The notes under the pieces are model-generated. The model ran no database searches. It was not told the origin of the DNA and worked only from the letters and a program-made list of their open reading frames with translations. A stretch of DNA of 64,000 nt from Escherichia coli (lineage in GTDB: Bacteria; Pseudomonadota; Gammaproteobacteria; Enterobacterales; Enterobacteriaceae), in the NCBI RefSeq assembly GCF_003334305.1, contig NZ_QOWS01000002.1, one strand, 5' to 3'. The translations under genes were made by a program, and so were the position numbers. How positions within the stretch are numbered: position 1 is the stretch's first letter; each line of letters starts with the position of its first letter. Positions 59,910 through 63,065 of this stretch are shown piece after piece.

Positions 59910-62549
59910 ATGCTGGGTAAATATAAAGCCGTTCTCGCGCTGTTATTACTGATTATTCTTGTGCCGTTGACGCTGCTGATGACGCTCGGGCTGTGGGTTC
60001 CCACGCTGGCGGGCATCTGGCTACCGCTCGGGACACGTATTGCATTAGATGAAAGCCCACGCATTACGCGTAAAGGTTTAATCATTCCCGATCTCCGTTA
60101 TCTGGTGGGAGATTGTCAGCTTGCGCATATCACCAACGCCAGCCTTTCACATCCCAGCCGCTGGTTATTGAACGTCGGCATGGTAGAACTTGATTCTGCT
60201 TGTCTGGCGAAATTGCCGCAGACGGAGCAATCGCCAGCTGCTCCAAAAACCCTCGCGCAGTGGCAGTCCATGCTGCCTAACACCTGGATCAATATCGATA
60301 AACTGATTTTTTCTCCCTGGCAGGAATGGCAGGGAAAACTCTCTCTCGCATTAACCTCTGATATCCAGCAACTGCGTTATCAGGGCGAAAAAGTTAAATT
60401 TCAAGGCCAGCTGAAAGGGCAACAACTTACAGTCAGCGAACTGGATGTCGTCGCGTTTGAAAATCAGCCGCCGGTTAAACTGGTGGGGGAATTTACTATG
60501 CCGCTCGTGCCGGATGGACTTCCTGTAAGTGGGCATGCTACTGCGACGTTAAACTTGCCGCAGGAACCGTCACTGGTGGATGCAGAGCTGGACTGGCAGG
60601 AAAATAGCGGGCAATTGATTGTGCTGGCACGGGATAACGGCGATCCGTTGCTCGATTTGCCGTGGCAAATTACTCGTCAACAATTGACCGTAAGCGATGG
60701 TCGCTGGAGCTGGCCGTATGCAGGTTTTCCTTTGAGTGGCCGACTGGGTGTCAAAGTCGACAACTGGCAGGCAGGGCTCGAGAACGCTCTGGTCAGCGGG
60801 CGACTGAGTGTGCTGACCCAGGGGCAAGCGGGTAAAGGCAACGCGGTGCTTAATTTTGGTCCAGGAAAATTAAGCATGGAAAAAAGTCAGATGCCACTGC
60901 AACTGACCGGTGAAGCGAAACAGGCGGACCTCATTTTATATGCCCGCTTACCCGCGCAGCTAAGTGGAAGTCTGACTGACCCAACGCTGGCCTTTGAGCC
61001 CGGCGCGTTATTACGTTCGAAGGGAAGAGTCATCGATTCGCTGGACATCGATGAAATCCGCTGGCCTTTAGCGGGTGTAAAAGTCACCCAACGTGGTGTT
61101 GACGGACGTTTGCAGGCCATTTTGCAGGCGCATGAAAATGAACTGGGCGATTTCGTGCTGCATATGGATGGGCTGGCGAATGATTTTCTCCCTGACGCTG
61201 GCCGCTGGCAGTGGCGCTACTGGGGAAAAGGCAGTTTTACACCGATGAATGCCACCTGGGATGTTGCAGGAAAAGGTGAGTGGCATGACAGCACGATTAC
61301 GCTGACCGATCTCTCCACCGGTTTCGACCAGTTACAATACGGTACGATGACGGTAGAAAAGCCGCGATTAATTCTCGACAAGCCCGTCGTCTGGGTACGT
61401 GACGCACAGCATCCCTCCTTCAGCGGCGCGCTGTCACTGGACGCCGGGCAAACGCTGTTCACTGGCGGCAGTGTGTTACCGCCATCAACCTTAAAATTTA
61501 GCGTCGATGGGCGCGATCCGACGTATTTCCTCTTTAAAGGCGATTTACATGCTGGTGAGATTGGCCCGGTTCGGGTAAATGGTCGCTGGGACGGTATTCG
61601 TCTGCGCGGTAACGCCTGGTGGCCAAAACAATCACTGACTGTATTCCAGCCGCTGGTGCCACCCGACTGGAAGATGAACTTACGCGATGGTGAACTGTAT
61701 GCTCAGGTTGCATTTTCTGCTGCGCCTGAACAAGGATTCCGCGCGGGAGGACACGGCGTGTTGAAAGGCGGTAGTGCCTGGATGCCAGATAATCAGGTTA
61801 ACGGTGTCGATTTTGTCCTGCCTTTCCGTTTTGCCGATGGAGCCTGGCATCTGGGGACTCGCGGCCCCGTTACGTTGCGAATTGCCGAAGTGATTAATCT
61901 GGTGACAGCGAAAAATATTACGGCTGATTTGCAAGGGCGTTATCCGTGGACTGAAGAAGAACCCTTGCTGTTGACTGATGTTAGCGTCGATGTGTTAGGC
62001 GGTAACGTACTGATGAAACAATTACGTATGCCGCAACATGACCCGGCGCTGTTGCGGCTGAATAATCTCTCATCCAGCGAACTGGTTAGCGCCGTCAATC
62101 CGAAACAATTCGCCATGTCCGGGGCATTTAGTGGTGCATTGCCGTTATGGCTAAACAACGAAAAATGGATAGTGAAAGATGGTTGGCTGGCAAATAGCGG
62201 GCCAATGACCTTGCGGCTGGATAAAGACACCGCAGATGCGGTGGTGAAAGACAATATGACTGCGGGTTCAGCAATTAACTGGTTGCGCTATATGGAAATT
62301 AGCCGGTCATCGACAAAAATTAACTTAGATAATCTCGGTTTATTAACCATGCAGGCCAACATTACAGGTACCAGTCGCGTTGATGGTAAAAGCGGTACGG
62401 TAAACCTTAATTACTATCATGAAGAGAATATTTTTACGCTGTGGCGCAGTTTACGCTTTGGCGATAATCTCCAGGCATGGTTGGAGCAGAACGCACGTCT
62501 GCCGGGAAATGACTGTCCGCAAGGAAAAGAGTGTGAGGAAAAACAATGA
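59910..62549 (+). CDS. ydbH: AsmA-like large envelope protein
   Basis: 879-aa ORF with N-terminal membrane anchor; first gene of the ydbH-ynbE-ydbL unit. Confidence 0.9.
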   Translation: MLGKYKAVLALLLLIILVPLTLLMTLGLWVPTLAGIWLPLGTRIALDESPRITRKGLIIPDLRYLVGDCQLAHITNASLSHPSRWLLNVGMVELDSACLAKLPQTEQSPAAPKTLAQWQSMLPNTWINIDKLIFSPWQEWQGKLSLALTSDIQQLRYQGEKVKFQGQLKGQQLTVSELDVVAFENQPPVKLVGEFTMPLVPDGLPVSGHATATLNLPQEPSLVDAELDWQENSGQLIVLARDNGDPLLDLPWQITRQQLTVSDGRWSWPYAGFPLSGRLGVKVDNWQAGLENALVSGRLSVLTQGQAGKGNAVLNFGPGKLSMEKSQMPLQLTGEAKQADLILYARLPAQLSGSLTDPTLAFEPGALLRSKGRVIDSLDIDEIRWPLAGVKVTQRGVDGRLQAILQAHENELGDFVLHMDGLANDFLPDAGRWQWRYWGKGSFTPMNATWDVAGKGEWHDSTITLTDLSTGFDQLQYGTMTVEKPRLILDKPVVWVRDAQHPSFSGALSLDAGQTLFTGGSVLPPSTLKFSVDGRDPTYFLFKGDLHAGEIGPVRVNGRWDGIRLRGNAWWPKQSLTVFQPLVPPDWKMNLRDGELYAQVAFSAAPEQGFRAGGHGVLKGGSAWMPDNQVNGVDFVLPFRFADGAWHLGTRGPVTLRIAEVINLVTAKNITADLQGRYPWTEEEPLLLTDVSVDVLGGNVLMKQLRMPQHDPALLRLNNLSSSELVSAVNPKQFAMSGAFSGALPLWLNNEKWIVKDGWLANSGPMTLRLDKDTADAVVKDNMTAGSAINWLRYMEISRSSTKINLDNLGLLTMQANITGTSRVDGKSGTVNLNYYHEENIFTLWRSLRFGDNLQAWLEQNARLPGNDCPQGKECEEKQ

Positions 62550-62731
62550 AAATTTTACTGGCTGCGTTGACGTCATCTTTTATGCTGGCTGCCTGTACGC
62601 CGCGTATTGAAGTCGCTGCGCCCAAGGAACCGATCACTATCAATATGAACGTTAAAATTGAGCATGAGATCATCATCAAGGCAGACAAAGATGTCGAAGA
62701 GCTGCTTGAAACTCGTAGCGATCTTTTCTGA
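62546..62731 (+). CDS. ynbE: small lipoprotein YnbE
   Basis: 61-aa ORF with lipobox MLAAC; start overlaps the ydbH stop (ATGA). Confidence 0.85.
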   Translation: MKILLAALTSSFMLAACTPRIEVAAPKEPITINMNVKIEHEIIIKADKDVEELLETRSDLF

Positions 62732-62738
62732 GGCGATG

Positions 62739-63065
62739 ATGAAGAAAACATTACTTCTTTGTGCGTTTCTTGTTGGGCTGGTAAGCAGCAATGTAATGGC
62801 ATTGACTCTGGATGAAGCCAGAACTCAGGGGCGGGTAGGTGAAACATTTTATGGTTATCTGGTTGCGCTGAAAACGGATGCTGAAACAGAGAAATTAGTA
62901 ACCGACATTAATGCCGAACGTAAAGCGAGTTACCAACAACTGGCAAAGCAAAATAATGTGTCTGTAGATGATATCGCGAAACTCGCCGGGCAAAAGCTCG
63001 TAGCTCGGGCCAAACCGGGGGAATATGTACAAGGGATAAACGGTAAATGGGTGCGAAAATTTTAA
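62739..63065 (+). CDS. ydbL: periplasmic protein YdbL (DUF1318)
   Basis: Track ORF 62658..63065 trimmed to MKKTLLLCAFLVGLVSS... (108 aa); the adjacent ATG at 62736 is an equally possible start. Confidence 0.85.
   Translation: MKKTLLLCAFLVGLVSSNVMALTLDEARTQGRVGETFYGYLVALKTDAETEKLVTDINAERKASYQQLAKQNNVSVDDIAKLAGQKLVARAKPGEYVQGINGKWVRKF

Follow-up and report, generated by a model that had tools for sequence, protein, structure and literature searches.

How phospholipids are delivered to the outer membrane of Gram-negative bacteria is a long-standing problem, and the YdbH-YnbE-YdbL system is one of three redundant answers under study as well as a potential target for antibiotic potentiation. YdbH is one of six proteins of the AsmA-like clan in E. 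coli; a single N-terminal helix that anchors the protein in the inner membrane belongs to the description of this clan, and a Chorein-N-like region after the transmembrane helix has been given for all six paralogs (PMC8593681). Synthetic lethality of tamB, yhdP and ydbH was published in 2021 (PMC8593681), and Kumar, Davis & Ruiz (PNAS 2024, PMC11126948) described a YdbH-YnbE bridge in which beta-strand augmentation joins the two proteins and YdbL acts as a chaperone-like modulator. That study reported both YdbH-YnbE cross-links, obtained in vivo, and YnbE-YnbE cross-links, placed YnbE at the C-terminus of YdbH by cross-linking and AlphaFold-Multimer, and found that a tamB-deleted strain depleted of YhdP does not survive the loss of ynbE and that overexpressing ydbL kills a tamB yhdP double mutant. 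Binding of YdbL to a YnbE peptide, the crystal structure of YdbL and the NMR mapping of its contact with the YnbE helix have been published by De'Ath et al. (bioRxiv 10.64898/2026.03.16.712125).

Several described systems resemble this bridge. Like YdbH-YnbE, TamB-TamA pairs an AsmA-like rod anchored in the inner membrane with an outer-membrane protein on which the rod depends, and the two systems are functionally redundant (PMC11126948, PMC8593681); however, TamB is longer and its partner is an Omp85 beta-barrel rather than a lipoprotein of 45 residues, and YdbH functions without TamA (PMC12447247). YhdP is likewise an AsmA-like paralog, redundant for outer-membrane lipid homeostasis (PMC8593681), but with its 1266 residues it has been proposed to span the periplasm alone via C-terminal hydrophobic helices, and grafting the YhdP C-terminus onto YdbH makes the latter independent of YnbE (PMC12447247). 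The concept of a continuous hydrophobic beta-groove that crosses an aqueous gap, its parts joined edge to edge through beta-strands, applies to YdbH as it does to the Lpt bridge (LptC-LptA-LptD) and the eukaryotic RBG proteins VPS13 and ATG2 (PMC11126948). LptD was, though weakly, among the top PDB Foldseek hits of our structural search with YdbH. Whereas Lpt transports LPS with energy from ATP, YdbH has no known energy source and no known partner in the inner membrane. For YdbL, the authors drew an analogy to CsgC-CsgA of the curli system, in which a periplasmic factor prevents runaway amyloid-like polymerization (PMC11126948), although CsgC and YdbL are related neither in sequence nor in fold and the closest structural match of YdbL is the ClpP handle region (bioRxiv 10.64898/2026.03.16.712125).

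The ydbH-ynbE-ydbL locus and its products

In the window, by which we mean the whole 64,000-nt stretch of E. coli DNA analyzed, positions 59910 to 63065 of the + strand hold the ordinary ydbH-ynbE-ydbL operon of this species, a locus that is already well studied. The three genes lie head-to-tail, with ldhA upstream and feaR downstream according to both the ORF listing and direct reading of the sequence (Table 1). The E. coli K-12 locus has the same flanks and the same ATGA overlap, all published functional residues that we checked are present, and the differences amount to strain-level polymorphism only. Because the locus is the canonical one, this stretch yields no new mechanism. Family profile scores, together with the presence of the locus in 5418 of 5426 complete E. 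coli genomes, which makes it core, establish that all three are genuine genes and not chance ORFs.

Table 1. Features of the ydbH-ynbE-ydbL region, in window positions
Feature	Position	Strand	Remarks
ldhA-ydbH divergent intergenic region	59703..59909	+	207 nt, 68% A+T; operon promoter presumed within
ydbH	59910..62549	+	879 aa, ATG..TGA, no internal stops; inner-membrane-anchored AsmA-like (repeating beta-groove) protein
ydbH codons 2-36, N-terminal transmembrane anchor helix	59913..60017	+	Kyte-Doolittle and predicted model
ydbH 3' end, C-terminal ~150 aa	62100..62549	+	published YnbE/YdbL docking region; divergent allele block begins here
GAGGA Shine-Dalgarno motif of ynbE	62535..62539	+	within ydbH; 6 nt ahead of ynbE ATG
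ynbE	62546..62731	+	61-aa outer-membrane lipoprotein precursor; mature form 45 aa; PF13617
GAGG Shine-Dalgarno-like motif of ydbL	62730..62733	+	overlaps ynbE stop codon
ydbL	62739..63065	+	108-aa periplasmic DUF1318 protein, TAA stop; alternative ATG 62736; PF07027
Perfect 16-bp inverted repeat	63199..63239		arms 63199-63214 and 63224-63239; 9-nt loop

An earlier, sequence-only reading had taken the locus for an AsmA-family protein and two small partners forming an envelope-spanning assembly. It interpreted the locus correctly but has become outdated, every check that it proposed having already been published. The outer coordinates, the 879-residue ydbH and the overlap of the ydbH stop with the ynbE start were exact. 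An assembly of all three products that spans the envelope has been described, AlphaFold-Multimer models of the ternary complex are available (PMC11126948), and so is the synthetic lethality with tamB and yhdP (PMC8593681). An absence of genetic interaction, which was to speak against the grouping, is contradicted by the lethality of ynbE deletion and of ydbL overexpression in tamB/yhdP-deficient backgrounds (PMC11126948). Its remark that the roles of the small partners are incompletely understood has been overtaken by published roles for YnbE and YdbL (PMC11126948, bioRxiv 10.64898/2026.03.16.712125).

The AsmA-family assignment of YdbH is borne out by the NCBIfam equivalog NF007971 (1396.5 bits, cutoff 824, residues 1-878 of 879) and by Pfam PF11739 (2.4e-289, residues 14-862), in line with its published membership of the AsmA-like clan (PMC8593681). 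Kyte-Doolittle 19-residue windows above 1.6 are confined to residues 1-40, leaving one hydrophobic segment at the N-terminus. The AlphaFold2 model (pLDDT 85.7) places helices at residues 2-24 and 26-36, followed by ∼55 consecutive beta-strands from residue 42 to 840, and matches AlphaFold Database models of the YdbH family from Enterobacterales and Pasteurellales at TM scores of 0.7-0.87. The published gain-of-function positions T303, G305, G308 and G456 are retained. Searches of PDB sequences with YdbH, a YdbH profile and YnbE found no solved relatives.

YnbE matches Pfam PF13617 (3.7e-16) and was correctly called a lipoprotein, with an LAAC lipobox whose Cys17 is invariant in 10 homologs and is followed by Thr at position +2. 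Under the established +2 rule, a Thr rather than an Asp at this position predicts that the Lol system sorts YnbE to the outer membrane. Across the 10 homologs, the mature N-terminal region, CTPRIEV..ITINMNVKIEHEI, is kept, and it is the beta-strand region of YnbE that their alignment shows to be conserved. YdbL, matched by Pfam PF07027 (3.2e-31), is the small periplasmic protein it had been taken for: residues 1-21 form a cleavable signal peptide (cleavage motif VMA|LTL), and PDB entry 28oj ("Probable chaperone-like protein YdbL"), which is YdbL itself, begins at residue 22 and matches residues 22-108 at 3.1e-52. The published interface residues R61, L68, N72, A83 and L87 are invariant in our alignment. 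NCBIfam returned no match for either YnbE or YdbL.

We consider it highly probable, at roughly 0.88, that ydbH-ynbE-ydbL encodes one of three redundant bridges from the inner to the outer membrane, together with TamB and YhdP, that maintain the phospholipid supply of the outer membrane. In this bridge, YdbH is fixed in the inner membrane by its one N-terminal helix, and its rod of stacked beta-strands reaches into the periplasm with a concave hydrophobic face that presumably shields the acyl chains of lipids. Through beta-strand augmentation, a single beta-strand of YnbE (I30-I38) extends the YdbH sheet at its C-terminal edge, tethering the bridge and lengthening its groove, and YnbE also stacks on itself. 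Periplasmic YdbL clamps the C-terminal helix of YnbE (K45-F61), restrains runaway YnbE multimerization and probably aids the docking of YnbE on YdbH. Lipid transfer by the YdbH bridge, its direction and the number of YnbE molecules per bridge are points that we infer.

The bridge might also be real and yet have a main cargo or role other than bulk phospholipid transport, such as helping outer-membrane proteins or lipoproteins to assemble or insert, the role first proposed for TamAB; the lipid phenotypes would then be indirect. TamB was initially described within a protein translocation and assembly module, the AsmA-like GspN is reported to assist surface transport of lipoproteins, and a biochemical demonstration of transport has never been made for YdbH-YnbE (PMC11126948). 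Our structural search with YdbH fits such a role as well, its best matches being several kinds of beta-sheet protein including outer-membrane barrels. We nonetheless regard a non-lipid role as improbable. Triple depletion upsets lipid homeostasis while a defect in OmpA assembly is absent (PMC8593681), the groove architecture is common to eukaryotic lipid-transfer RBG proteins (PMC11126948, PMC8593681), and the bypass of YnbE by the C-terminal YdbH-YhdP fusion fits a role of YnbE in length and anchoring (PMC12447247).

Translational coupling and transcript ends

The ATG of ynbE (62546-62548) overlaps the TGA of ydbH (62547-62549), giving ATGA at 62546-62549. With their common direction, this overlap and the GAGGA Shine-Dalgarno motif inside ydbH, the two genes have the features of a termination-reinitiation pair, and reporters for this very pair showed strong coupling of that kind, with ynbE translation depending on ydbH translation and the Shine-Dalgarno motif being "strictly essential for reinitiation" (Huber et al. 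2019, PMC6728339). The stable RNA structure that these authors invoked at the ynbE start was not evident in our prediction, where the segment from -99 to +30 folds no better than shuffled sequences (z = +1.26). The start of ydbL had been placed 5-8 nt after ynbE, which is slightly off. An ATG at 62736, the RefSeq call in the 100%-identical strain A7, gives a 109-residue protein, a 4-nt spacer and only 2 nt to the GAGG motif, and an ATG at 62739, the RefSeq call in three other strains, gives 108 residues and a 7-nt spacer. The latter matches the residue numbers used in published studies of YdbL and has the better gap to GAGG (5 nt). With the ATGA overlap and the internal Shine-Dalgarno motif, ynbE is translated almost solely by ribosomes that terminate on ydbH, ydbL follows 7 nt on, and this arrangement of the genes helps to determine the protein ratios, which genetics show to be critical.

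Could the three genes instead be merely adjacent and independently expressed, with their tight spacing incidental? Weak promoter-like hexamers do occur on the + strand inside ydbH (62038-62066) and ydbL (62930-62957), but promoter-like sites within the operon are no commoner than in shuffled sequence (4 found, 3.9 expected). Moreover, in Salmonella and in the loci of nine further relatives with 26-49% YdbH identity, ydbH is overlapped at its 3' end, or directly adjoined there, by a PF13617 gene, the overlap being exactly 4 nt, as in E. coli, in five of the nine. This conservation down to 26% identity, the dependence of ynbE on ydbH translation (PMC6728339) and the strong genetic interactions (PMC11126948) leave independent expression a negligible chance. 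Papers on the locus term it an operon (PMC11126948), and the three genes probably share a single transcript.

Upstream of ydbH, a strict sigma-70 scan of the + strand returned no promoter, the best sites in a relaxed scan matching at 8/12; an AGGA motif precedes the ATG of ydbH by 12 nt. Within ydbH-ynbE-ydbL, the terminator scan found no + strand site, and an Rfam scan gave no match inside or beside the three genes. Downstream, a distance of 134 nt separates the stop of ydbL from the inverted repeat, which overlaps the stop codon of the convergent feaR. The RNA of 63066-63260 folds better than shuffles (z = -4.3), and the terminator scan flags the repeat on the - strand only. Since a U-tract is absent on both sides, we offer it as a candidate transcript end for both ydbL and feaR.

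YdbL and relatives outside E. coli

The coupling of ynbE to ydbH contrasts with the more variable presence of ydbL. As the matches listed for YdbL all had at least 70% identity, distant synteny was addressed via YdbH representatives instead. In 7/7 distant loci with enough downstream sequence, ydbL is missing beside ydbH-ynbE, and it was seen only in close enterobacteria. The uncalled gaps of ∼345-545 nt that follow ynbE in three of these relatives (L008, L009 and L011) contain no ORF of at least 30 aa resembling YdbL.

These distributions bear on whether the functional unit is the ydbH-ynbE pair only, with ydbL not an integral third subunit but a lineage-specific fine-tuner of YnbE in Escherichia, Salmonella and Citrobacter-like enterobacteria, so that speaking of a ternary assembly would be an overstatement. 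YdbL is dispensable for YdbH/YnbE function (PMC11126948), is undetectable at native levels and, when free, is degraded by DegP in vitro (bioRxiv 10.64898/2026.03.16.712125). It also evolves faster than its partners (dN/dS of 0.16 versus 0.02-0.05), and the YnbE C-terminal helix to which it binds is not conserved in relatives that carry a gene of the HI_1241 family. In P. aeruginosa, YnbE is required for YdbH function, the two being encoded by the adjacent genes PA5307/PA5306, in a study that never mentions YdbL (PMC12447247). However, full multicopy suppression does require YdbL (PMC11126948), and two loci that lack ydbL, L006 and L011, retain a YnbE C-terminal helix like that of E. coli; ydbL could therefore be encoded elsewhere in those genomes. 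We thus treat the pair-only unit as a serious possibility, if a tentative one, beside the three-protein bridge.

In a Pasteurellaceae-like branch, a polytopic membrane gene of the HI_1241 family abuts the start of ydbH, its stop overlapping the ydbH start. NCBIfam returned no match for HI_1241-like proteins and a literature search on HI_1241 found nothing. As a lead, the HI_1241-family protein may be the partner that the bridge is missing in the inner membrane, the one that loads lipids, in these lineages devoid of ydbL. For the choice of experiments, the picture is one of a ynbE universally coupled to ydbH, a lineage-restricted ydbL and one branch with an alternative upstream membrane-protein partner.

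A divergent allele block within E. coli

Within E. coli, the C-terminus of YdbH, ynbE and ydbL constitute a sharply divergent, bimodal allele block, with dS ranging from ∼0.9 to saturated as compared to 0.05 upstream. For the ydbH 3' end, dS is 0.88 versus 0.047 upstream, at a dN/dS of ∼0.05, and the identity breakpoint relative to O157:H7 lies near 62100. A K-12-like strain, by comparison, has 98.2% DNA identity to the present locus, with YdbL 99% and YnbE 97% identical. We considered whether the O157-type divergence merely reflects different genome content downstream and rejected this as a full account: feaR is missing from CFT073 too, and that strain nonetheless has the block type seen here.

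An old bimodal allele block over interacting parts could guide the choice of experiments in the field. We entertain, as a speculation with a small chance of being correct, that ynbE, ydbL and the final ∼150 codons of ydbH, which encode exactly the three surfaces in mutual contact, form discrete, anciently diverged and co-inherited classes whose interfaces are co-adapted. If so, mixing classes, for instance a K-12-type YdbH C-terminus and YnbE with an O157-type YdbL, would weaken the bridge. As a separate observation, the lipobox of YnbE reads LAAC in the present sequence and LVGC in the K-12-like, CFT073 and O157 strains.

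A characterized three-gene envelope system

The ydbH-ynbE-ydbL system is already known and characterized, and the side observations reported here are modest leads rather than discoveries. The 3.55-kb segment, annotated as ydbH / ynbE / ydbL and flanked by ldhA and feaR, is found in 5418/5426 complete E. coli genomes. ORF coordinates read from the sequence confirmed that the sequence-only reading had placed all three genes exactly; for the gap between ynbE and ydbL it gave 5 to 8 nt, and the actual values are 4 or 7 nt. RefSeq annotates the ydbL start at 62736 in strain A7 (100% identical), and in three further strains at the position corresponding to 62739. 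We prefer 62739 because 5 nt separate this ATG from a GAGG motif (62730-62733) and because it fits the published numbering of E60, R61, L68, K70, N72, A83 and L87.

Coordinates of features in the window and in loci of other strains and relatives (L-numbers)
Feature	Sequence	Position	Strand	Details
ydbH	window	59910-62549	+	ATG to TGA, 879 codons, internal stops absent
ynbE	window	62546-62731	+	61 codons; ATG shares three bases with ydbH TGA (ATGA)
ydbL	window	start ATG 62736 or 62739, end 63065	+	4 or 7 nt past ynbE stop
Divergent allele block	window	62100-63065		YdbH C-terminal ~150 codons, ynbE, ydbL; compare L002 3900-4863
Inverted repeat	window	63199-63239		perfect, 16 bp, 9-nt loop; between convergent ydbL and feaR; right arm includes feaR stop codon
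PF27206 gene	L009	2177-3001		5' of ydbH
PF27206 gene	L008	2177-3001		5' of ydbH
PF27206 gene	L010	1830-2654		5' of ydbH
PF27206 gene	L013	167-970		5' of ydbH
PF27206 gene	L014	178-990		5' of ydbH
McaS sRNA	window	45576-45671	-	Rfam gathering-level; abgR-smrA intergenic, expected position
FnrS sRNA	window	49049-49166	+	Rfam gathering-level; zntB-ynaL intergenic, expected position
MicC sRNA	window	53977-54097	+	Rfam gathering-level; ompN-nifJ intergenic, expected position

The claim that these genes form an envelope system is supported by family matches, sequence features and published work. YdbH scored 1396 bits against NCBIfam equivalog NF007971 (cutoff 824) and 2.4e-289 against Pfam PF11739, YnbE matched PF13617, and YdbL matched both PF07027/DUF1318 and PDB entry 28oj ('Probable chaperone-like protein YdbL'; residues 22-108, 3e-52). 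For YdbH and YnbE, sequence searches of the PDB, also with a 25-sequence profile, found no solved relatives. Based on an alignment of 25 full-length relatives (24-98% identity), YdbH is predicted to begin with helices at 2-36, to run as ~55 consecutive beta-strands as far as residue 840 and to close with a C-terminal helix (841-862) and disordered tail (mean pLDDT, 85.7); the model matches AFDB models of YdbH from Enterobacterales and Pasteurellales with TM 0.7-0.87. Such an AsmA-like repeating-beta-groove architecture has been described, along with a quoted Pfam clan assignment relating YdbH to TamB, YhdP and VPS13 and the gain-of-function substitutions T303I, G305W, G308C and G456V (PMC8593681). 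T303, G305, G308 and G456 all occur in the window's YdbH, G456 being invariant and G308 nearly so in the 25-sequence alignment.

The single hydrophobic segment of YdbH lies in residues 1-40. YnbE carries the lipobox L-A-A-C17 and a mature peptide of 45 residues; since its +2 residue is Thr, sorting to the outer membrane is predicted under the established Lol-avoidance rule. This lipobox (residues 14-17, window 62585-62596) reads LAAC here and LVGC in K-12-like, CFT073 and O157 strains, each consistent with the consensus. The YdbL signal peptide ends at VMA, followed by LTL, matching the N-terminus of the crystallized construct.

The checks proposed with the sequence-only reading (structure prediction of the complex, synthetic lethality with tamB and yhdP, localization of YnbE) have all been carried out in published work, and an absence of genetic interaction, which would have spoken against it, is contradicted by the finding that cells with tamB deleted and YhdP depleted need ynbE just as they need ydbH (Kumar, Davis & Ruiz 2024, PMC11126948). 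The same study reported in vivo cross-links between YnbE and the YdbH C-terminus and between YnbE molecules, loss of function upon proline substitutions in the YnbE beta-strand, and a YdbL that is dispensable yet dosage-critical; its authors proposed beta-strand augmentation with a chaperone-like YdbL, in a model of ~180 Å versus a periplasm of ~250 Å (PMC11126948). A 2.1-Å structure of YdbL and NMR mapping of its binding to the YnbE C-terminal helix have followed, together with evidence of a decrease in YnbE multimers when YdbL is in excess and of degradation of free YdbL by DegP (De'Ath et al. 2026, bioRxiv 10.64898/2026.03.16.712125). In P. aeruginosa, the adjacent PA5307/PA5306 show the same YdbH-YnbE dependence, and fusing the YhdP C-terminus onto YdbH makes YnbE unnecessary (2025 study, PMC12447247). 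We infer that the YdbH-YnbE bridge transfers lipid.

Coupled translation and putative transcript boundaries

Translation of ynbE comes almost wholly from ribosomes terminating on ydbH, and the ydbH/ynbE junction served as a test case in which an internal Shine-Dalgarno sequence was strictly required (Huber et al. 2019, PMC6728339). While these authors invoked stable RNA structure as the block to de novo ynbE initiation (PMC6728339), the fold around the ynbE start was not exceptional here (z = +1.26).

Indirect evidence from the sequence suggests that the three genes form a single transcription unit. No terminator-like sites were found on the + strand within the operon, where promoter-like sites occur at chance frequency (4 found versus 3.9 expected); in the ldhA-ydbH spacer (207 nt, 68% A+T), no promoter was recognizable by consensus. 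The hairpin region past ydbL is much more stably folded than shuffled sequence (z = -4.3), and no U-tract adjoins its inverted repeat on either strand. This repeat is likely a shared transcript-end structure of ydbL and feaR.

ynbE, ydbL and an upstream neighbor across relatives

A HMMER scan of 1.84 billion representatives (E <= 1e-3) returned just 569 relatives of YdbH, and we viewed the genomic context of eight of them (26-49% YdbH identity) plus Salmonella. In all nine loci, a PF13617 gene overlaps or abuts the ydbH 3' end. The overlap is exactly 4 nt, as in E. coli, in L006, L007, L008, L009 and L010, with the junction reading ATGA in L009 and GTGA in L006; the gene calls of the remaining four loci show either direct abutment or an overlap of 1, 8, 13 or 17 nt. 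ydbL follows ynbE in Salmonella after a 7-nt spacer, and a PF07027 gene 3' of ynbE was absent in 7/7 distant loci with enough downstream sequence. No ydbL follows ynbE in L006 and L008 to L014 (26-49% YdbH identity), and no ydbL-like ORF was found in uncalled gaps past ynbE. A constant ynbE beside ydbH and a patchy ydbL fit the genetics, in which ynbE is essential and ydbL a modulator.

Conservation in YnbE centres on the lipidated Cys together with the beta-strand region (CTPRIEV..ITINMNVKIEHEI), while the YdbL-binding C-terminal helix is kept in enterobacterial-type sequences and not in the most divergent branch. L006 and L011 lack an adjacent ydbL yet encode an E. coli-like YnbE helix; these genomes may therefore carry ydbL at another site. 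Four database proteins of 155-173 aa (P0004-P0007) combine PF13617 and PF07027 as apparent YnbE-YdbL fusions. All come from metagenome or read-assembly sources (three single-sequence clusters, one with four members), and a frameshift or a gene-calling error across the 4-7-nt spacer most likely explains them.

A gene of the PF27206 'HI_1241' family (267-274 aa) precedes ydbH in the 26-31% identity branch, its end falling at the ydbH start codon or immediately 5' of it, with a TAATG junction in L009. This branch (L008-L010, L013, L014) is probably Pasteurellaceae, given that Haemophilus, Actinobacillus and Aggregatibacter make up the AFDB hits at 21-28% identity. The products, with about seven hydrophobic segments, have no NCBIfam match and no homologue within the window, and a literature search on the family found nothing. 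Scramblases partner eukaryotic RBG proteins; by this analogy, and given the coupling to the ydbH start, the polytopic protein is a plausible candidate for an inner-membrane lipid-loading partner of the bridge.

A divergent allele block within E. coli

Compared with O157:H7, the window is 97-100% identical from ldhA through ydbH codon ~730, after which identity falls sharply to 74-87% up to the ydbL stop. dS rises from 0.047 upstream to 0.88 in the YdbH C-terminus, saturation in ynbE and 0.85 in mature ydbL, with dN/dS of ~0.05, ~0.02 and 0.16, respectively. The C-terminal 199 residues of YdbH are 93% identical, and mature YnbE differs only by E52D and E55K, both within the YdbL-binding helix, almost all remaining YnbE differences being in the signal peptide. 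YdbL is 72% identical, the same distance as to Salmonella or Citrobacter YdbL. The distribution is bimodal: the O157-type block (>= 95%) occurs in 375 complete genomes and the window type, counted as 80-90% identity to the O157-type query, in 5040, with no intermediates among complete genomes. P0014 and P0026 represent a third YdbL type. The published interface residues R61, L68, N72, A83 and L87 are invariant across YdbL types, and the O157, Salmonella and Citrobacter types have Ala where the window has E60, in agreement with the reported functional silence of E60A (bioRxiv 10.64898/2026.03.16.712125).

The block adjoins a variable genome junction, with ydbL followed by feaR here and in K-12-like strains, by other genes in O157 and CFT073, and by a ynbA-like gene in Salmonella. 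CFT073 carries the window-type block despite its different downstream genes; downstream content is therefore insufficient as the sole cause of the allele pattern. The block could reflect co-adaptation of three interacting surfaces, or mere recombination beside a plastic junction.

Eight of the 5426 complete genomes lack the ydbH locus at megablast level. In E. coli SCPM-O-B-7615, IS1A replaces ydbH beyond its first ~726 nt (L005 4211-5688), and ynbE and ydbL are lost; this natural truncation is consistent with YdbH being dispensable while TamB and YhdP are intact. Five of the 5420 places matching the ydbH locus in complete E. coli assemblies lie in records labeled plasmid, which may be wrongly assigned replicons or plasmids carrying large chromosomal segments.

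Elsewhere in the window, collinearity with strain A7, in which one offset fits all three sRNA coordinates, places uspF directly after ttcA (~50933-52478). K-12 presumably has the Rac prophage at ttcA, and the window strain appears to be without it. Finally, ydbJ (57917-58183, +) and hslJ (58180-58602 as annotated, -) are convergent, their 3' ends overlapping by 4 nt (58180-58183).
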